Shown: piece by piece, positions 5,438 to 59,694 of the stretch
Layout of the letters: every line of letters begins with the position of its first letter
Numbering within the stretch: the stretch's first letter is position 1
NCBI GenBank assembly: GCA_034432095.1
Contig: DAOUCV010000026.1
Span: 24,657-88,656, forward strand
Length of the DNA stretch: 64,000 bases
Source of the DNA: Dehalococcoidales bacterium
GTDB taxonomy: Bacteria > Chloroflexota > Dehalococcoidia > Dehalococcoidales > UBA2162
Direction of reading: 5' to 3'
Notes under the pieces: generated by a model
Told to the model about the DNA's origin: nothing
Database searches by the model: none
The model's input: only the letters and a program-made list of their open reading frames with translations
Position numbers and translations under genes: made by a program

Positions 5438-5567
5438 GTTACCTGCTCACCAGCTCTAGGTCAAAACTACGGGGTTTTTTAGTCATCTCCATTCTACACC
5501 ATAAGGCTGGGTCTAGGTAAGGCTGGATTTGCTCTTTGGAGCTTAAGAGTGTAAAGTATAGGCGTCA

Positions 5568-6881
5568 ATGGAAAAGCGGCCGGATGAATTTAGAGGTATG
5601 GCTGGGGATATGGGGATGGGGCTGGGGATACCATCAGCTAGACCAGCCGGGTTCTCTTTACGCAATCTGAAGACCTTTAGCTCCTTCAAGAACCCGGTCT
5701 ATCGTCTCTACTATGGCGGTATGATGGGCGAGATGGCTGCCATGAATATGCAGATAGTAGTCCGCTCCCTGCTTATCTATCGCCTGACTAACTCACCAGC
5801 TATCCTAGGGGCGATGTCTCTAGCCTTCGCTGTACCTATGCTATCTTTGTCCCTCTTTGGTGGTGTCATCGCCGACCGGGTACAGAAAAAGTATGTTATG
5901 CTCATCGGGCAGGCAGCCTCGGCTGTGCTCTCTCTGGGTATCGCACTAGCGCTGGCTCTGGGCTACCTGAGCGCTGAAAAATCTGGCTCGTGGTGGATTT
6001 TAGTGGTATCCGCCGTGCTCCAGGGAATTATTATGGCTCTGGTAATGCCCTCACGTCAGGCTATCCTCCCTGAGATAGTTGGCGGAGAGCAGCTGATGAA
6101 TGCAATATCACTGAGTAGCATGGGGACGAGTATTCTGCGTCTCTTTGCTCCGGCGTTGTCAGGCTTTCTCGTTGACGCAATAGGCTTTGAGGCAGTCTAT
6201 TATACCACGACCGGCTTGTACCTTGTGGCGGTGGGCTTCATCGCTCTTCTGCCACTTACCAGCACCACAACTATCCGCGGCAGCAGTGCCTGGACTGGCA
6301 TGAAAGAAGGGATTAACTATCTCAGGCGTGAGACCACCCTCCTCTTCGTTCTTGGCTTCACCCTTGTCACGACCGTACTCTCGATGCCCTATCAGCAGAT
6401 GATGCCTATCTTCACTGATGACATCCTGAAGGTGGGTGCCAGCGGTCTGGGAGTGCTGATGAGCGTCTCCGGCGCTGGTTCCATGGTTGGCTCCTTCGTC
6501 CTCGCCTCCTTGCCCAATAAGAAGCGGGGGCTCATGTTGTTAATTAGCAGCACCTTTTTGGGCGTGGCACTGGCGAGTTTCTCCTTCTCAACTTCGTGGC
6601 CCCTCTCCCTGGGCTTGGTTGTCTTTGTTGGACTGGGCCAGATGGGGCAGATGACCTTGGGCAACACCCTGCTCCAGTACTATGTAGCGGACGAGTACCT
6701 TGGACGGGTGATGAGTATCCTTATGATGCAGTTTGGTCTGATGAGCCTTGGTACCTTCGTAGCCGGGCTGCTGGCGGAGGCTCTGGGGGTACAGTGGGCG
6801 GTCGGTGGGTTTGCTATGTGTCTTGTCTTCCTGTCCGTCCTGGCGCTGGTCTTACTCCCCCGGATAAGGAATCTGGACTAA
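5568..6881 (+). CDS. MFS transporter
   Basis: 437 aa, about 12 hydrophobic segments, MFS loop motif GGVIADRVQKK. The exact start is uncertain. Confidence 0.8.
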   Translation: MEKRPDEFRGMAGDMGMGLGIPSARPAGFSLRNLKTFSSFKNPVYRLYYGGMMGEMAAMNMQIVVRSLLIYRLTNSPAILGAMSLAFAVPMLSLSLFGGVIADRVQKKYVMLIGQAASAVLSLGIALALALGYLSAEKSGSWWILVVSAVLQGIIMALVMPSRQAILPEIVGGEQLMNAISLSSMGTSILRLFAPALSGFLVDAIGFEAVYYTTTGLYLVAVGFIALLPLTSTTTIRGSSAWTGMKEGINYLRRETTLLFVLGFTLVTTVLSMPYQQMMPIFTDDILKVGASGLGVLMSVSGAGSMVGSFVLASLPNKKRGLMLLISSTFLGVALASFSFSTSWPLSLGLVVFVGLGQMGQMTLGNTLLQYYVADEYLGRVMSILMMQFGLMSLGTFVAGLLAEALGVQWAVGGFAMCLVFLSVLALVLLPRIRNLD

Positions 6882-14913: not shown

Positions 14914-14949
14914 AACGGAAAAGAGGGGCTTTAGCCCCTCTTTTCCGTT
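14914..14949. terminator. bidirectional intrinsic terminator hairpin between convergent genes
   Basis: Perfect 16-bp stem AACGGAAAAGAGGGGC / GCCCCTCTTTTCCGTT with TTTA loop, between fdhA (+) and the 98-aa ORF (-). Confidence 0.7.
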
Positions 14950-15337: not shown

Positions 15338-17935
15338 GTGATGCGAGAAGGTTCAACCCCTATCCGAGAGCAGTACCTCCGCATTAAGCGAAGGTACCCT
15401 GAAGCCATTGTCCTGTTTCGTCTGGGGGACTTCTATGAGACCTTTGACAATGATGCCAAGATTGTCTCCAAGGAACTCGATATTGTTCTGACCTCCAGAG
15501 AGATGGGTAAGAACTACCGGGTGCCTCTAGCTGGTATCCCCTATCATGCCCTCGGTAACTATCTTGCCAGACTGGTCAATCGCGGCTATAAAGTAGCTAT
15601 CTGTGAGCAGCTCACTCAGCCCGGCGAGACCAGAGGTCTGGTGGAGCGAGAGGTTGTCCGTGTGGTAACCCCGGGCACGGTAGTTGAGCCAAGCCTTCTT
15701 GATAGCAAGTCAAATAACTACTTGACCAGCCTGGTCCTGGGTGATAACGAGGTAGGCATCGCCTATGTTGACATAACGACCAGCGAATTTGCCACTACCC
15801 AGCTACCTCTCTCCCGGGCGCAGCCGGAGCTGGAGCGCCTCAAGCCCTCGGAGATTATTGCCGCCAACGGTGCCGAACTGTCTGGCTGGGGACTAAGCGC
15901 TCCAGTGACCCGCCTTGAGGACTACTGGTTTGAGCTGGAGATTGCCCGTCAAACACTGCTTGAGCATTTCAGGGTGGCTACCCTTGACGGCTATGGCTGC
16001 GCCAATCTGCCGCTGGCAATAAGAGCCGCCGGCGCTATTATCCGCTACATTCAGGAGACGCAGAAAGGAGCGCTGGGACAACTGACCAGACTTTCTACTT
16101 ACTCTACCAGTTCATTTATGGCGCTGGATATAGAGACCCAGAACAACCTGGAGCTTTTTCGTAGCAGTCGGACCGGGACAACTGGCGGCTCACTGCTGGG
16201 GGTTATTGACCTGACCAAGACGGCTATGGGGAGCCGACTATTAAAGAAGTGGCTGAGCCAGCCTCTGCTTGACATAACAGAACTGGTCAAGAGACAGGAC
16301 GCCATTGAATGGTTCTACAATAACACCCTGCCCCGTAATCAGACCATCTCTTTGCTGAGTAAGACGGCTGACCTTGAACGGCTGATTAACCGGGTAAGGA
16401 GCGGGATTGTTACCCCCCGCGAGCTGGTCGCCTTGAAGCGCGGGCTGGAGGTGATACCTAAGCTGGTAGAAGTATTTGAGGGTGGTAGCAGTAATAGCCC
16501 GATAAACTGGTTAAAGGAGGAGCTTAAACCACGCCAGGATGTTGTTGAGTTGATTGGCGAGGCGCTCGCTGACGAACCGTCTTCGAGCCTGAGTGAGGGC
16601 AATGTCATCAGGAAGGGTTTCGATGAGGAGCTGGACAAGCTCAGGTTAGTATCTCAGAACGCCAAGCAATACCTGGCTAATCTGGAACGGCAGGAGCAGG
16701 AAAAGACCGGGATTAAATCCTTAAAGGTCGGCTATAATAGGGTCTTTGGCTACTATATTGAGGTATCTAAACCCAATCTGCCGCAGGTGCCTGAGCACTA
16801 TATCAGGAAGCAGACACTGGTGGGTGGTGAACGCTTCTTCACCCCCGAGTTAAAAGAGTATGAGTCTCTGATTCTAAACGCCCGGGACAGGATTAGCGAG
16901 CTTGAGACCAGCCTCTTTCATCGGGTATGCCGTCAGGTAGCCACCGCCAGCGAGCGCATTCTAGCCGTCGCCAACGCTTTAGCGAATGTAGACGTCTGCT
17001 CAAGCCTGGCGGAAGTGGCGGTGCGCAATAGCTATGTTCGTCCCAAGCTGACTACGGGTAAGGAGATAGTTATCAGTCAGGGGCGTCACCCGGTAGTCGA
17101 GCAGAGTCTAGCTGATGGCGGCTTTGTGCCCAATGATACCTATTTGTCCAATGATGATGCCCAGCTTGTTATCCTTACCGGTCCCAATATGGCCGGGAAG
17201 TCAACCTACTTGAAGCAGGTAGCCCTGATTGTGCTCTTAGCCCAGATTGGCAGTTTTGTGCCGGCGGCTTCAGCCACCATCGGTCTGGTTGACCGTATCT
17301 TTACCAGAATTGGTGCCAGGGAAGACCTGGCGGCAGGCCAGTCCACCTTTATGATGGAGATGGTGGAGACCGCCAATATCCTGAATAATGCTACCCCGAA
17401 ATCGTTAATCATCCTTGATGAGATTGGTCGGGGCACCAGCACCTACGACGGGCTCTCCATCGCCCGGGCGGTCGCTGAATATATTCATAATAACCCGAGG
17501 CTTGGGGCTAAGACCCTCTTTGCCACCCATTATCACGAGCTGGTGGAGCTGGCTAATTTCCTGCCAAGGGTGAAGAATTTCAATGTGGCAGTAACTGAGG
17601 AGGGAGGGGAGGTTATCTTTCTGCGCAAGATTGTGCCCGGCGGTGTTGATAAGAGCTACGGCATTCATGTGGCTCAACTTGCGGGGCTGCCCAGGTCGGT
17701 TGTGCACCGGGCTAATGAGGTACTGGAAGAGCTTGAAGAGGGTAGCCGTAGAGACTTAGCCAGACCATCGGTCAAGGGTCGCCGCCGTAAGCCCGAGCCA
17801 GCCCAGCAACTGACCTTCTTCGGTCAAAAACCACCGGTCTTGGAGGAACTGGAAGAGCTGGATATAGACTCCCTCACCCCCCTCCAAGCCCTCACTAAAC
17901 TATATGAATTACAGAAGAAGGCGAGGGGAACATAA
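15338..17935 (+). CDS. mutS: DNA mismatch repair protein MutS
   Basis: 865 aa. N-terminal mismatch-binding motif (FYETFDNDA), Walker A GPNMAGKST, DEIGRGTSTYDG, THYHEL. Confidence 0.95.
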   Translation: MMREGSTPIREQYLRIKRRYPEAIVLFRLGDFYETFDNDAKIVSKELDIVLTSREMGKNYRVPLAGIPYHALGNYLARLVNRGYKVAICEQLTQPGETRGLVEREVVRVVTPGTVVEPSLLDSKSNNYLTSLVLGDNEVGIAYVDITTSEFATTQLPLSRAQPELERLKPSEIIAANGAELSGWGLSAPVTRLEDYWFELEIARQTLLEHFRVATLDGYGCANLPLAIRAAGAIIRYIQETQKGALGQLTRLSTYSTSSFMALDIETQNNLELFRSSRTGTTGGSLLGVIDLTKTAMGSRLLKKWLSQPLLDITELVKRQDAIEWFYNNTLPRNQTISLLSKTADLERLINRVRSGIVTPRELVALKRGLEVIPKLVEVFEGGSSNSPINWLKEELKPRQDVVELIGEALADEPSSSLSEGNVIRKGFDEELDKLRLVSQNAKQYLANLERQEQEKTGIKSLKVGYNRVFGYYIEVSKPNLPQVPEHYIRKQTLVGGERFFTPELKEYESLILNARDRISELETSLFHRVCRQVATASERILAVANALANVDVCSSLAEVAVRNSYVRPKLTTGKEIVISQGRHPVVEQSLADGGFVPNDTYLSNDDAQLVILTGPNMAGKSTYLKQVALIVLLAQIGSFVPAASATIGLVDRIFTRIGAREDLAAGQSTFMMEMVETANILNNATPKSLIILDEIGRGTSTYDGLSIARAVAEYIHNNPRLGAKTLFATHYHELVELANFLPRVKNFNVAVTEEGGEVIFLRKIVPGGVDKSYGIHVAQLAGLPRSVVHRANEVLEELEEGSRRDLARPSVKGRRRKPEPAQQLTFFGQKPPVLEELEELDIDSLTPLQALTKLYELQKKARGT

Positions 17936-17965
17936 AGTAAACTTTTTAGAGAAAGGAGAACGGAA

Positions 17966-18571
17966 ATGAAGATTTTGGCTGTTTCGTGCAGTCCAAGAAG
18001 ACAGGGGAATACTGAGATATTGTTAGGCGAGGCACTCAAGGGAGCGCAATATGAGGGGGCTGAGACAGAGCTTTTTAGTGTTGCCGGCAAGACCATAGCG
18101 CCCTGTGACGCCTGCAATAGCTGTATGAAGAAAGGCGTATGTCACATCAAGGACGACATGCAGGGACTATACGATAAGCTATTAGAAGCCAATGGTATTA
18201 TCTTCGGTACCCCGATTTACTTCTACAACATGGCAGCCCAGTGCAAGGTGATAATGGACCGGACGATTGCGCTGAACCATCCGGAGAGGAACTTGGCCAA
18301 CAAGGTTGGGGGCATCGTCGTGGTCGCTGCCAGTCTGGGCAACATAGACGCCGTAAAGGACCTCTATTTCTACTTCGTCTCACGGCGGATGCTTGCCGCC
18401 AGTTATGTCGCCGCTTACGCCATGGCTCCGGGTGAGGTAAAAAACCTCGAAAAATGTATGAAGGCAGCCTATGACCTTGGTCGGCAGGTGGCGCGTCTGG
18501 CAGCGATGAATTTCAAATATCCCAGCGATTTGATATTACCCGCTATCGCCTACGGCACCCACACCCGCTAG
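17966..18571 (+). CDS. iron-sulfur flavoprotein (Isf-type NADPH-dependent FMN reductase / flavodoxin-like fold)
   Basis: CSPRRQGNT flavodoxin-like N-terminus and a compact CX2CX2CX5C motif (CDACNSCMKKGVC). Confidence 0.75.
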   Translation: MKILAVSCSPRRQGNTEILLGEALKGAQYEGAETELFSVAGKTIAPCDACNSCMKKGVCHIKDDMQGLYDKLLEANGIIFGTPIYFYNMAAQCKVIMDRTIALNHPERNLANKVGGIVVVAASLGNIDAVKDLYFYFVSRRMLAASYVAAYAMAPGEVKNLEKCMKAAYDLGRQVARLAAMNFKYPSDLILPAIAYGTHTR

Positions 18572-18583
18572 CCGAATACCTAC

Positions 18584-18870
18584 TATCAACATTCCTAACC
18601 CTATCCCCTTAATCCCCTTCCCCTTGCCAAGGGGAAGGGGAATTTTTATATTTTAATTTTATATAAGGGAGGCTTCGTCTCTCTTTAACTCTCTTTATTT
18701 ATGGGGTCTCTGAGAGGGGCGTAAGCCCCTCTTTAAAAATAACTTCCCCTCTCTTTTTAAGGAGAGGAGATAGGGGGTGAGGGAAGATTTAAAAGAGGCG
18801 GCTTTCGTCCCCTCTCTTACTATTCTCCCCCTTCCCTTAGTAAGGGAAGGGGGCAGGGGATAGGTTGCTA
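18584..18870. repeat. MITE-like multi-hairpin intergenic element, copy L1 (287 bp)
   Basis: Inverted termini: TATCAAC..AACCCTATCCCCT at 18584-18609 and AGGGGATAGGTTGCTA at 18855-18870. Perfect 12-bp hairpins at 18614-18640 and 18827-18853. AGAGGGGC-GTAA-GCCCCTCT at 18713-18732. Confidence 0.75.
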
Positions 18871-18946
18871 TACTTAAAAAACCACTTAAAAGACCTGTCT
18901 TGGTTTGTTGTTGAGTGTGGGCCTAGTGTAATATTTAGCGGAGAGA

Positions 18947-50511: not shown

Positions 50512-50532
50512 CAAAAGTCAATGAGTTTTGTT

Positions 50533-50761
50533 TATCAACCCATCCCCCTGAGGCACCCGGAAAAATCTTTGATTTTTCCGGGAACCCGCCTAACCCCCTT
50601 CCCTTATTAAGGGAAGGGGGAAGCTTTTTGAAAAGGGGCTGACGCCCCTCTTAAACACCTCAAAAATATAGGGAGAGTTAAAGAGAGGCAAAGCCTCTCT
50701 TATATAACTAATTCCCTTTCCCCTTAATAAGGGGAAGGGGATACAGGGGATAGGGTTACTA
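50533..50761. repeat. MITE-like multi-hairpin intergenic element, copy L2 (229 bp)
   Basis: Termini: TATCAACCCATCCCCCT (50533-50549) and AGGGGATAGGGTTACTA (50745-50761). Hairpins: CCCGGAAAAATC/GATTTTTCCGGG, CCCCCTTCCCTT-ATT-AAGGGAAGGGGG (50594-50620), AGAGAGGC-AAA-GCCTCTCT (50682-50700), and 50714-50740. Confidence 0.75.
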
Positions 50762-50862
50762 AAAAATCTAAGAGGGTGAGGTTGATGGACAATCTTGTTA
50801 ACTCGTTAGTAGGAATGGGAATAAATAGAGTATAATTACAACTGGACTCGAAAAGGCAACCA

Positions 50863-51420
50863 ATGAAAACTATTTTTCGTAACACCTTCTTCAGTGATAC
50901 CCTGACAATACTCATCATAGCGGCAGTAGTTGCCGTCGGGCTTCAAGCCGTAGTCCAGAAATTCGCCGTAAAAGGTCACAGCATGGACCTTACTCTTGAA
51001 CACAAACAACAGTTAATAGTCAATAAAGTCGTTTATAAATTTCATCAGCCGGAAAGGGGCGATATCATCATATTCCATTCCCCTTTTGAGGAAGAGGAGT
51101 GGGTCAAGCGTATCATCGGCTTACCCGGTGAATCAGTTGAGATAAAAGACGGGAAAGTTTATATTCATAAGAAAGATGGCACGGTGTTGCCATTAGATGA
51201 GCCTTACGTCACCAGACCAGCCACAGAACCTTTCAGGGGGGGAGTAATTCCAGAAAACCAATACTTTGTCATGGGTGACAACCGCACCGGTAGCAGTGAT
51301 TCTCGCAATGGCTGGACACTACCACAGAAGAACATCATCGGTAAAGCCTGGTTATCAATCTGGCCGCCACATAAATGGGGACTGGTGCCTCACTACTCCT
51401 TTGAAGAGCCAGCAAAATAA
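50863..51420 (+). CDS. lepB: signal peptidase I
   Basis: N-terminal TM helix, catalytic GHSM box, RGDIIIF, KRIIGLPGE, GDNRTGSSDSR. Confidence 0.9.
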   Translation: MKTIFRNTFFSDTLTILIIAAVVAVGLQAVVQKFAVKGHSMDLTLEHKQQLIVNKVVYKFHQPERGDIIIFHSPFEEEEWVKRIIGLPGESVEIKDGKVYIHKKDGTVLPLDEPYVTRPATEPFRGGVIPENQYFVMGDNRTGSSDSRNGWTLPQKNIIGKAWLSIWPPHKWGLVPHYSFEEPAK

Positions 51421-54990: not shown

Positions 54991-55010
54991 GTCAGCTCGA
55001 CATAGAAATT

Positions 55011-55246
55011 TATCAACCTCACCCCCCTAGCCCCCTCTCCTTAAAAGGAGAGGGGGAGTTAAATTAAAAGAGGGGCGTTAGCCCCTCTTAGACTCCCCCT
55101 CCAGTTCGAATCCAGCTTGCTCTAGCTAAATACCTGAAAAGTGGGCAACGGGTGTTTAGAGGGGGGCGCTAAAGCGCCCCCCTCTTTTAAAAACTTCCCC
55201 CTTCCCCTTAAAAAGGGGAGGGGGATAAAGGGGGATGGGGTTAATA
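55011..55246. repeat. MITE-like multi-hairpin intergenic element, copy L3 (236 bp)
   Basis: Termini: TATCAACCTCACCCCCCT (55011-55028) and AGGGGGATGGGGTTAATA (55229-55246), 15/18 complementary. Hairpins: CCCCCTCTCC-TTAAAA-GGAGAGGGGG (55031-55056), AAGAGGGGC-GTTA-GCCCCTCTT (55068-55089), a perfect 12-bp AGAGGGGGGCGC-TAAA-GCGCCCCCCTCT followed by TTTT (55158-55189), and 55197-55224. Confidence 0.75.
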
Positions 55247-55278
55247 AAAACCATAAGTCCGGTAAGAGAGTTATGAAC

Positions 55279-56916
55279 CTACTGATATAATGAACAGGCA
55301 AGCTCCTCCCGGGTGATAATTTCAATGAGGGCTGCCCGCCCTGAGTCCACGGCTTTCTTTGCCCTTTTTATTGCGGGAATAATATCACCCGGCTGTTCTA
55401 CCTTTTCCGCATAGCCCCCCAGTCCTTCAGCGACTTTAGCATAATCTCCCGATTGCCGATTGAGATTATAGCGCTCGGAAGCTACCGGATGAAACCTCGT
55501 ATATCCCGAAAGTACCGAATTATTTACCACGATGACCAGGATGGGGATCTTCTCCCTCACTGCCGTCTCGAAGTCCATACCCACCATACCAAAGGCGGCG
55601 TTACCCATAAAAGCAACGGCGGTCTTATCCGGTCTGGCTAGCTTTGCCCCCATGGCAAAGCCCAGGGAACCACCCAGCGTGGTCGTCTTTCCCCAACCGA
55701 TATAGCCCCCCGGTATAAGACACTCCCAGAAAGGAACGAGGTGGTCTCGCGGATAGCCGGAGTCGTGGGTGATGATTGTTTCCCTCCTGTCTAACACCTG
55801 CATCATGTCCCAGATGACCCGGTAGGGATTAATGGGGACCTCATCGGAGGTAAGCTTCGGCATCCACTCTTTCAGCCACTCATCCTTGACCGCCTTAATC
55901 TCTTTAGCAACAGCTTTTTCCCCTTTTCTACCTTCAGGACCAATCTGTGCTTTAACTTCCTCGATGAGCTGTCGCAGCACTAGCTTGGCATCCCCAATGA
56001 TGGCGTGCTCCAGGGAATAGTCTTTGTTTATGTCCCGTTCATCTATGGTAGACTGTATGACACGCTTGTCATCGGGGATAGGAGTGGTAAAACCCTCTTT
56101 GGTACAGCTGGAGCCGATGGCAAACACCAGGTCGGCTTTCTTTAGAAAGTGCATCACCATTTTGGGTCGTGTCCGTCCGCCGGTCCCGAGGGATAGAGGA
56201 TGATTCTCCGGGAAGGCGCTCTTCCCGCACATCGTGGTGAACACCGGGATCTGTAGTAACTCGGCAAGCTCGCGCAGTTCATCCCAGGCACCGGCAAAGA
56301 GGGTTCCCTGACCCGAGCGGATGATTGGATTCTTGGCGGCAATCAGGGCTTTAGCTACTGCCCTTACATCGGCAGGGTCTCCCTCAGCCTTGACGCCTTT
56401 TACCGGTCTATACTGGAACCTAGCATCATCAAACTCCTCCATGGCTACATCCCCTGGTACCTCGAGCAATACCGGACCTGGGCGCCCCGTTCGGAGGTAA
56501 GTAAAGGCGCGTCTCATCATCTCAGGCACCTGGTCAGCGAAGTAGATCATATCTGTCCACTTGGTGATTTCCCGGTAGTTTTTCACCGCAATGAAATGCG
56601 GCGGTACTAACCGGCGGCGTGGCTGTCCACCGGGCAGGACTAGAATCGGCACCGATTCGCTAAAAGCCTGCGCTACACCCGAGAAAGCGTTTTCAATTCC
56701 AGGTCCGGACTGCATGGCGCAGACACCGATACGCTGACCGAACGAAGCCCGGGTGAAACCATCGGCTATGCCCACCCCCACCCGTTCATTCCTCGCCATT
56801 ATCGGTCTGATGCCTTCCTCGGCACCGGCTTCGATTACGGGGTTCTGGGGGAAACCGCTGATAAAGTCAACCCCTTCCATCTTCAGAATCTTCGCTATGG
56901 CAGTTCTACCTTGCAT
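55279..56916 (-). CDS. thiamine diphosphate-dependent enzyme (acetolactate synthase large-subunit / sulfoacetaldehyde acetyltransferase superfamily)
   Basis: 545 aa with the three-domain ThDP layout and the ThDP-binding motif region (GNAAFGMVGMDFETAVREKIPILVIVVNN). Confidence 0.8.
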   Translation of the reverse strand: MQGRTAIAKILKMEGVDFISGFPQNPVIEAGAEEGIRPIMARNERVGVGIADGFTRASFGQRIGVCAMQSGPGIENAFSGVAQAFSESVPILVLPGGQPRRRLVPPHFIAVKNYREITKWTDMIYFADQVPEMMRRAFTYLRTGRPGPVLLEVPGDVAMEEFDDARFQYRPVKGVKAEGDPADVRAVAKALIAAKNPIIRSGQGTLFAGAWDELRELAELLQIPVFTTMCGKSAFPENHPLSLGTGGRTRPKMVMHFLKKADLVFAIGSSCTKEGFTTPIPDDKRVIQSTIDERDINKDYSLEHAIIGDAKLVLRQLIEEVKAQIGPEGRKGEKAVAKEIKAVKDEWLKEWMPKLTSDEVPINPYRVIWDMMQVLDRRETIITHDSGYPRDHLVPFWECLIPGGYIGWGKTTTLGGSLGFAMGAKLARPDKTAVAFMGNAAFGMVGMDFETAVREKIPILVIVVNNSVLSGYTRFHPVASERYNLNRQSGDYAKVAEGLGGYAEKVEQPGDIIPAIKRAKKAVDSGRAALIEIITREELACSLYQ

Positions 56917-59605: not shown

Positions 59606-59694
59606 TATCAACTTTATTCACTCTCCTTAAGAGGGAGACGGGGATGAATATTATGAGAGGGGCTCCGTCTCTCTGCCCTTCTCTGTCTGGTATA
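59606..59694. repeat. miniature/degenerate copy (L4) of the multi-hairpin element
   Basis: Begins with the same TATCAAC terminus (59606-59612). Contains C-type (CTCTCCTTAAGAGGGAG) and B-type (GAGAGGGGCTCCGTCTCTC) modules. The right end is poorly defined. Confidence 0.45.

Follow-up and report, generated by a model that had tools for sequence, protein, structure and literature searches.

A probable miniature inverted-repeat transposable element widespread in intergenic DNA of uncultured Dehalococcoidia

The Correia element (NEMIS) of Neisseria is a non-coding intergenic repeat of ~100-155 bp that occurs in high copy and has ~26-nt terminal inverted repeats and long hairpins. It can supply promoters or terminators, its transcripts are cut by RNase III, and its presence or absence differs between strains. 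The BOX element of Streptococcus pneumoniae is composed of boxA, a variable number of boxB, and boxC, and has complementary ends and a stable predicted structure. The ERIC (IRU) of enterobacteria is a ~127-bp imperfect palindrome in transcribed intergenic DNA, longer variants of which result from insertions at fixed internal sites. Here I describe a repeat from Dehalococcoidia, whose genomes are small and compact. It was analyzed in a 64,000-nucleotide stretch of DNA from a Dehalococcoidales bacterium (GenBank assembly GCA_034432095.1, contig DAOUCV010000026.1, positions 24,657 to 88,656 of the forward strand), hereafter called the window, which has four intergenic loci of similar build, L1 to L4. 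With a probability of about 0.8, these loci are copies of a non-autonomous DNA transposon, or miniature inverted-repeat transposable element (MITE), that is widespread in uncultured Dehalococcoidia. Three-digit numbers such as L121 denote loci outside the window.

The Dehalococcoidia element resembles Correia in size, termini, and structure. However, Correia duplicates TA, whereas 7-11 bp are duplicated here; it lacks the trio of perfect homopurine/homopyrimidine internal hairpins and resides in another host phylum. The modular mosaic with a module number that varies between copies is shared with BOX, but BOX has no well-defined target duplications, while the order in the Dehalococcoidia element is fixed and its variation arises by nesting, insertions, and deletions. 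The fixed-site insertions of ERIC are comparable to module D and the AT-rich insert in hairpin C described below, although ERIC has no comparable internal perfect hairpins and a different host range. Correia, BOX, and ERIC are set apart here by their known architecture, and their sequences are expected to be unrelated. The REP/BIME, REPIN (RAYT), and TIR (TIRYT) repeats are also short palindromes in mosaics, strictly extragenic and in high copy, and a REP/BIME unit is a 20-40-bp palindrome with a GTAG or CGTC tag on one of its ends (PMC3733652). In contrast, the present element lacks the GTAG/CGTC tag and has long non-self-complementary termini and target duplications. Moreover, no associated tyrosine transposase gene was found in the scanned loci, where the genes between neighboring copies are housekeeping genes. 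By its architecture, the element is a bacterial MITE, an ordinary kind of bacterial repeat and not a new category.

The canonical unit is ~150 bp in length (147-160 bp), has no coding capacity, and consists of a 24-25-nt terminus, hairpin A, hairpin B, hairpin C, and an inverted terminus, in this order. Canonical copies of different metagenome-assembled genomes (MAGs) align along their whole length. The terminus is composed of GAGATTGTTTAKCWACC followed by TATCCCCC or TCACCCCC, and the terminal inverted repeat reads GAGATTGTTTAGCAACCTATCCCCC at one end and, inverted, GAGATTGTTTATCAACCTCACCCCC at the other. Outside the ACC core, the consensus extends for 13-14 nt (GAGATTGTTTA[T/G]C[A/T]ACC...), and the terminus can be written as the pattern GAGATTGTTTAKCWACCTMWCCCC. 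The stems are short, perfect, and G+C-rich: CCCCCTTCCCTT/AAGGGAAGGGGG for A, AGAGAGGGGC/GCCCCTCTCT for B, and CCCCCTCTCC/GGAGAGGGGG for C. Two types of ends exist. At the first, a terminus (AACCCYATCCCC or AACCTATCCCCC) is followed by 4-5 nt, hairpin A, ~11 nt, and hairpin B; at the second, a terminus (AACCTCACCCCC) is followed by 4 nt, hairpin C, ~9 nt, and hairpin B. The smallest complete units unite both end types, while many copies have tandem doubled termini such as GATTGTTTATCTACCTCACCCCC-TT-TAGATTTTTATTGGTAACCCTATCCCC.

A preliminary description of the window, made from its letters alone, had proposed a MITE-like family with paired inverted termini and recurring hairpin modules A, B, and C. 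A mechanical hairpin search found perfect 8-13-bp stems where that description had placed them, with 5′ arms that are homopyrimidine (types A and C) or homopurine (type B). The termini as an inverted pair are conserved across copies (in the window, clearly in L2 and L3 and partially in L1 and L4), but the true ends lie ~10 nt further out. The A-run that had been noted outside the right end is actually the degenerate outer half of the terminus (TAATAAACAATCTC). The number of modules does vary between copies, as had been stated; their order, which had been thought to be free, derives from the fixed series of terminus, A, B, C, and terminus.

It was found that the four loci are related to each other and to sequences elsewhere. 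An nhmmer profile built from twelve copies, all from other genomes, matches the window at four loci only at E<1e-3: L1 (5e-22), L3 (7e-16), L2 (5e-12), and L4 (9e-8), exactly those that had been listed as related copies. A covariance model gave 106 bits for L3, 82 bits for L2, and 61 bits for L1. The motif classes also exceed chance. Allowing up to 3 mismatches, the left-terminus pattern has 16 matches against 6.6 expected in shuffled sequence, and the matches with up to 2 mismatches all lie in the three large loci except for one extra at 50772-50787. The A-arm AAGGGGAAGGGG with up to 2 mismatches has 36 matches (10.5 expected), and the type-B hairpin pattern has 4 (0.47 expected).

Is this element common in other genomes? 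When a single representative genome of each species was scanned for the type-A hairpin, in which 20 bases were specified, at least 118 stretches were returned, the great majority of them from Dehalococcoidia MAGs; I estimate that a uniform base composition would yield only a handful of chance matches. The same motif grammar was seen across ~118 loci. The search for further copies and conserved termini, which had been proposed as the check on a repeat family, found both, with 171 element regions in 104 of the 121 scanned loci. By a crude gene call, 165 of the 171 regions are intergenic. No named family had been recognized in the preliminary description, and none was found here: a search of the whole window returned 0 Rfam matches at the gathering score, E-value searches over L1 and L2-L3 gave only generic hairpin/miRNA-type matches far below threshold, and nothing relevant was found in the full-text literature by taxon, by 'MITE', or by literal sequence strings. 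Plasmid and phage records had no match to the canonical copy.

Evidence of mobility comes from the flanks. Direct duplications of 7-11 bp flank 8 of 21 near-full canonical copies in other genomes, for example GCTTTCATT (L025), TAATGCTGA (L035), CTCAGTGA and ATAACAGA (L054), CAATAAGAAG (L086), TAATAAGG (L082), and GTGTATG (L098). In a first screen, a repeat of at least 6 nt was found in 7 of 57 candidate terminus pairs, as compared with 1% of random controls, and TAATGCT(GA) is among the repeats abutting paired inverted termini. An IS630-like TA duplication (TA-TCAACC...GGTT..-TA) was considered and dropped once the termini proved to extend further out.

In addition, the open reading frames (ORFs) of the fetched loci were compared all-against-all, yielding syntenic orthologous pairs from different MAGs. 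The site is filled in L004, is without the element in L061, and keeps a lone hairpin B in L017. Further pairs of filled and lacking sites are L107/L093, L082/L090, L077/L078, and L110/L068. In several pairs, the filled site has a full element between genes that are adjacent or nearly adjacent in the relative. The L2 site of the window has such a relative: positions 50541-50796 are absent from L121, while the flanks align on both sides and the flanking proteins are 79-93% identical. Copies at orthologous positions are retained in species that share 85-93% protein identity. The L3 site gave no clean orthologous comparison, since the downstream synteny differs (three loci from a metagenome scan with the glycerate-kinase-like protein). 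Thus, further copies, conserved 24-25-nt termini, target-site duplications, and presence/absence pairs all favor the MITE-like reading.

The three hairpins behave as DNA palindromes. When folded as single-stranded DNA and compared with shuffles, L1 reaches -62.4 kcal/mol (z -5.9), L2 -68.5 (z -8.5), and L3 -63.7 (z -7.1). RNAalifold on 16 canonical copies predicts the three hairpins plus a closing stem of the paired termini at -72 kcal/mol. Among 149 distinct model-aligned matches, 93.9% of the cells are paired. The corresponding figure for shuffles is 84.7%, with none of 500 attaining the observed value, and slid controls stay at or below 75%. Two-sided changed cells number 588, as compared with 155 in shuffles; these counts are of sequences, not events, and are inflated by subfamilies. 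A tally of helices 3, 4, 6, and 7 (A, B, and C) gave ~500 two-sided changes and ~80 one-sided changes of the G·U type, and hairpins A, B, and C have few unpaired cells except for the outermost pair of hairpin B. For example, beside a tRNA gene, the arms AGGGAGGC/GCCTCCCT of one species correspond to AGAGAGGC/GCCTCTCT in the orthologous copy of a second species. The covariance model matches every element on both strands. The two-sided changes, the rarity of G·U pairs, and the matches on both strands together point to exact DNA palindromes rather than a stranded RNA. The conservation of the stems may come from a role in transposition or from palindrome-templated correction during replication.

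A life cycle of the element may be proposed as follows. A transposase encoded elsewhere would bind the termini, insert the unit into intergenic DNA, and duplicate ~7-11 bp of the target. The copies would persist for a long time and diversify by gaining extra hairpin modules at fixed internal points. New copies might land next to resident termini, which would account for doubled termini and for composites of the kind seen in L1 and L2, while the loss of internal sequence would proceed until a stub or a lone hairpin remains (L4; L017). The stems would be kept as exact Watson-Crick DNA palindromes by a requirement of transposition or by palindrome-templated repair, and any host use, for example as terminators, would be secondary.

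Several observations weigh against this interpretation. The preliminary description had suggested a search for a transposase with matching ends; no transposase bounded by the family termini was found in ~0.9 Mb of loci, the window, and contig extensions of 10 kb on each side. Terminus pairs 0.9-5 kb apart enclose only ordinary genes, the recurrent ORF clusters are housekeeping genes or orthologues, and the ORFs between adjacent copies encode BioY, RNase III, tRNA synthetases, peptidases, and similar proteins; none of these is a transposase. The target-site duplications that had been suggested as a test are not recognizable at the window's four copies, which fits old insertions. Elsewhere, their length of 7-11 bp depends on where the tip is drawn and varies more than is the norm for one transposase, and some of their bases coincide with the GAG/CTC tips of the termini, which leaves the exact boundary of the element uncertain. 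Perfect internal palindromes with compensatory changes are not a standard requirement of a DDE-type MITE. Furthermore, L121 (~690-720) and L093 (~810-840) lack the element but retain the outer 10-13 nt of one terminus (GAGTTTGTTTATC and GATTATTTAG, respectively), fused to the opposite flank. Such a half terminus would not be expected at a site that had simply never been occupied. It could be the scar of a deletion, the footprint of an excision, or a target that the element prefers. The sites of L121, L093, and L017 resemble products of deletion, or spots at which a newly arriving copy inserted alongside an older terminus; they are evidence of turnover, although not of its direction.

The palindromes and the half termini lead to a different mechanism, in which a single-copy tyrosine (HUH) transposase of the RAYT/TIRYT type acts on single-stranded hairpins without cut-and-paste, as for REP/BIME-like or 'TIR-repeat' elements. 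The dominance of short perfect palindromes in mosaics and the maintenance of exact palindromes in the stems would suit such an enzyme. So would the exact joining of the half termini of L121 and L093 to the other flank without a duplication, which is reminiscent of precise excision or of an insertion on the 3′ side of a fixed sequence. The inverted repeats flanking some TIRYT genes share GGGGWSAS (PMC3733652), and GGGGTGAG in one terminus fits this motif; the fit covers only 8 degenerate bases and is a weak lead to a partner. The 24-25-nt termini are conserved in sequence and pair with each other rather than being self-complementary. In the copies viewed, no GTAG/CGTC tag stands beside hairpins A, B, or C, which are flanked by TTTATC, CTGACC, GTAAG, and similar sequences, and no small HUH-type gene flanked by termini was found in the scanned loci. 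The 7-11-bp duplications enclose both termini of the 8 near-full copies and argue against an HUH mechanism; IS200/IS605-type and REP elements are not known to make target duplications. This explanation is thus considered unlikely. An equally tentative idea is that the family is a branch of a superfamily of hairpin-based elements spanning Chloroflexota, candidate-phyla-radiation bacteria, and other phyla. Its members might depend on exact DNA palindromes for their movement or maintenance, whether through a mechanism of the HUH/TIRYT type, another single-strand mechanism, or insertion beside resident termini, and hosts might have recruited the structures as RNase III-sensed leaders or bidirectional terminators.

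It is still harder to regard the element as a structured RNA or a cis-regulatory module (a terminator, an mRNA stabilizer, or an RNase III substrate) that is kept by the host, with the repeat family as a by-product. The very stable folds, the strong covariation, and the copies kept between species are what such a module would leave. Several terminator-like hairpins followed by T-runs lie just downstream of genes (18613-18641, 55219-55197, and 50594-50620), and a gene for RNase III repeatedly follows a copy, as described below. However, the covariance model matches both strands, G·U pairs are rare, and the sub-threshold Rfam matches are generic hairpins. The element regions are not enriched in convergent gene gaps, which hold 8 of the 119 regions classified and account for 45 of the 442 background gaps; divergent gaps show a slight enrichment (33 of 119 against 78 of 442). 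Selection for termination was therefore ruled out as the main explanation, and the distribution is better explained by insertion into any non-coding space; a secondary host use of individual copies, for example as terminators, is possible. The target duplications and the presence/absence pairs also show insertion, not vertical conservation. Finally, the loci could be independent intrinsic terminators or low-complexity intergenic sequences that are alike by composition alone. The hairpin arms are indeed compositionally simple, and the window has a hairpin with a type-B core between convergent genes outside any element (14914-14949). But the profile and covariance-model matches span linkers and termini and not the stems alone, and module order and spacing are fixed across ~100 loci. 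With the conserved termini and the duplications, these extended matches already refute independent look-alikes, which have next to no credibility. The MITE reading is retained as the best explanation.

In the window, L1 is a composite, L2 is extended, L3 carries an insert, and L4 is decayed. The four copies and a fifth on the same contig, with their parts, are as follows.

L1, 18584-18883: composite that unites two or more element copies; flanked by genes for an FMN-reductase-like protein (ends 18571) and an MFS transporter (starts 18947)
L1 left terminus, 18584-18610, plus strand: TATCAAC-ATTCCT-AACCCTATCCCC, probably a doubled terminus with an internal deletion
L1 hairpin A, 18613-18641: 13-bp perfect stem TCCCCTTCCCCTT/AAGGGGAAGGGGA, then a T-run
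L1 hairpin B, 18713-18732: AGAGGGGC-GTAA-GCCCCTCT
L1 inner near-complete canonical copy, 18728-18879, minus strand: terminus TAGCAACCTATCCCC, hairpin A, degenerate hairpin B, and hairpin C; far terminus missing
L1 hairpin C, imperfect, 18745-18770: CCCCTCTCTTTTTAAGGAGAGGAGA
L1 second hairpin A, 18827-18853: 12-bp perfect stem CCCCCTTCCCTT/AAGGGAAGGGGG
L1 right terminus, 18854-18879, minus strand: reads TATAGCAACCTATCCCCTG on that strand
L2 as redefined, ~50524-50796: flanked by two divergent genes, one ribD-like (start 50472) and one for a signal peptidase (start 50863)
L2 left terminus, 50524-50548, plus strand: AGTTTTGTTTATCAACCCATCCCCC, the outer 13 nt of which are also in the relative L121 that lacks the element
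L2 module D hairpin, 50556-50582: CCCGGAAAAATC-TTT-GATTTTTCCGGG
L2 hairpin A, 50594-50620: 12-bp perfect stem
L2 hairpin B, 50632-50651: AAAGGGGC-TGAC-GCCCCTCT
L2 hairpin B variant, 50681-50701: AAGAGAGGC-AAA-GCCTCTCTT
L2 second hairpin A, 50714-50740: one mismatch
L2 inner right terminus, 50742-50770, minus strand: ...AGGGGATAGGGTTACTAAAAAATCTA
L2 outer right terminus, 50773-50796, minus strand: AGGGTGAGGTTGATGGACAATCTT, after a spacer; doubled form as in other genomes
L3, 55002-55255: flanked by two convergent genes, one glycerate-kinase-like (ends 54990) and one for a TPP enzyme (ends 55279)
L3 left terminus, 55005-55028, plus strand: GAAATTTATCAACCTCACCCCCCT
L3 hairpin C, 55031-55056: CCCCCTCTCCT-TAAA-AGGAGAGGGGG
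L3 hairpin B, 55068-55089: AAGAGGGGC-GTTA-GCCCCTCTT
L3 hairpin B variant, 55158-55185: 12-bp stem AGAGGGGGGCGC/GCGCCCCCCTCT
L3 hairpin A, 55198-55224: one mismatch
L3 right terminus, 55226-55252, minus strand: AAAGGGGGATGGGGTTAATAAAAACC
L4, 59601-59694: short and decayed, between divergent DUF72 and thiamine-binding-protein genes
Fifth copy, L132 5440-5610, on the source contig ~3.8 kb to the right of the window: flanked by pspC-like and cysS genes

L1 had been taken as a single copy. Its nhmmer matches lie at 18743-18873 (minus strand, E 5e-22), 18711-18783 (plus, 1e-11), and 18593-18687 (minus, 5e-9), and the near-complete minus-strand copy at 18728-18879 (covariance model 61.1 bits, E 1e-18, model positions 1-155) abuts additional partial copies. 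The ATTCCT in its left terminus had been described as a 6-nt insertion; judged by doubled termini such as GATTGTTTATCTACCTCACCCCCTTTAGATTTTTATTGGTAACCCTATCCCC in other genomes, this end is better read as a doubled terminus that has suffered an internal deletion. L2 had been ended at 50761, which overlooked its second right terminus. Its order is terminus, module D, A, B, B, A, inner terminus, and outer terminus, and it scores E 5e-12 and 5e-11 with nhmmer and 82.4 bits with the covariance model. L3 has the order terminus, C, B, an insert of ~68 nt, B, A, and terminus; it matches the full covariance model at 106.1 bits (E 3e-35) and the profile at 7e-16 and 4.5e-14. L4 keeps a degenerate terminus with C-like and B-like hairpins, and the profile matches it at 59613-59680 on the minus strand. 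In the fifth copy, the consensus outer terminus GAGATTGTTTATCAACC is interrupted by an extra hairpin and followed by module D, a degenerate C, and a B hairpin, and the right terminus is lacking.

Thus, the contig has five copies in ~81 kb, or ~1 copy per 16 kb, and some other loci are denser. The window copies are 90-300 bp long, the genes flanking them are ordinary housekeeping genes, and only spurious low-complexity ORFs overlap them. Two such ORFs that had been pointed out (50724-50918 and 55122-55325) exist, while a third (17824-18117) stays clear of L1. The G+C content of the window is 51%, and a tRNA/tmRNA scan of it found none. Its proteins are 70-93% identical to those on the metagenome contig L121 and on MAG contigs labelled Dehalococcoidia/Dehalococcoidales, which places the host among the uncultured Dehalococcoidia. 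Near-identical contigs from another JGI sample and an ENA assembly carry the elements unchanged; the JGI and ENA assemblies are 99.995-100% identical over the compared stretches, elements included, and no strain polymorphism is visible there.

Two kinds of insert diversify the element. Module D (CCCGGAAAAATC-TTT-GATTTTTCCGGG and close variants) is found in several genomes (L039, L056, L025, and L036, and also L132 at ~5497-5530) and lies between the terminus and the first hairpin, which is hairpin A where that end is END-I. A ~28-bp AT-rich quasi-palindrome, CATGATAGGAATATATATCCATATCATG, is inside the element in at least 10 copies (L082 1046; L016 3072 and 3233; L117 5470; L119 4165; L090 913; L019 7322; and others) and in several of them clearly takes the place of the hairpin C loop; the window does not contain it. 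This palindrome represents a subfamily variant or else a still smaller nested insert.

The hairpin at 14914-14949 of the window stands alone between convergent molybdopterin oxidoreductase and DUF6504 genes. It has a 16-bp stem with the type-B core AGAGGGGC/GCCCCTCT, and the element profile does not match it. Since the element site of L017 is reduced to a lone B hairpin, this hairpin could be a relic or nothing more than a terminator. Only four motifs of the G-quadruplex type (four runs of at least 3 G) were found in the 64-kb window: 18599-18623 (minus strand), 50731-50755 (plus), 55215-55240 (plus), and 5604-5627. Three of them consist of the 3′ arm of hairpin A and the adjacent terminus in L1, L2, and L3. 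On the G-rich strand, quadruplex and hairpin would compete.

In three MAG loci, a copy lies directly upstream of the RNase III gene rnc (L054 4221-5122, L030 7146-7998, and L101 4227-5305). These are two independent insertions: L030 and L101 are orthologous (rnc 84% identical), while L054 has a separate canonical copy with the duplication ATAACAGA. Since double-stranded RNA is the substrate of RNase III, the regulation of rnc might be influenced by such a hairpin-rich leader.

Some records outside labelled Dehalococcoidia also have such elements. Six IMG/VR contigs classed as viral (L124-L129) carry the terminus and element copies, including a near-full copy at L125 1650-1818 (E 7e-44); they may be real viruses or misclassified host fragments. 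L010 and L017 (CAVTZP010000007 and CAVTZP010000003) belong to a MAG titled 'uncultured delta proteobacterium'. L017 is syntenic with L004/L061 (~70-84% protein identity) and L010 with L040/L058 (~80%). Both contigs share their elements with these Dehalococcoidales loci, so that the label looks unreliable. Similar small elements were seen in MAGs that are recorded as Saccharibacteria, Patescibacteria, Parcubacteria, Gammaproteobacteria, Bacteroidota, Cloacimonadota, Armatimonadota, and Ignavibacteriae (L007 2794-2918 and 4114-4234; L079, L063, L052, L071, L075, L034, L070, and L018). They have a ACCCCATCCCC-type terminus, an A-like hairpin, more CT/GA hairpins, and an inverted terminus. Most of them have no significant match to the Dehalococcoidia profile, and these look-alikes hint at a broader superfamily.

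The family does not change the picture of the known kinds of bacterial mobile elements, but it has consequences for the study of Dehalococcoidia genomes. It creates spurious ORFs in annotation, and the position of copies at contig ends in several loci suggests that they break short-read assemblies. It can also confuse binning labels, as in the 'delta proteobacterium' MAG. The profile is now usable for masking the copies and for tracing strain-level insertion differences. The three strictly kept palindromes, the doubled termini, and the half-terminus remnants offer handles on how the element inserts and decays.

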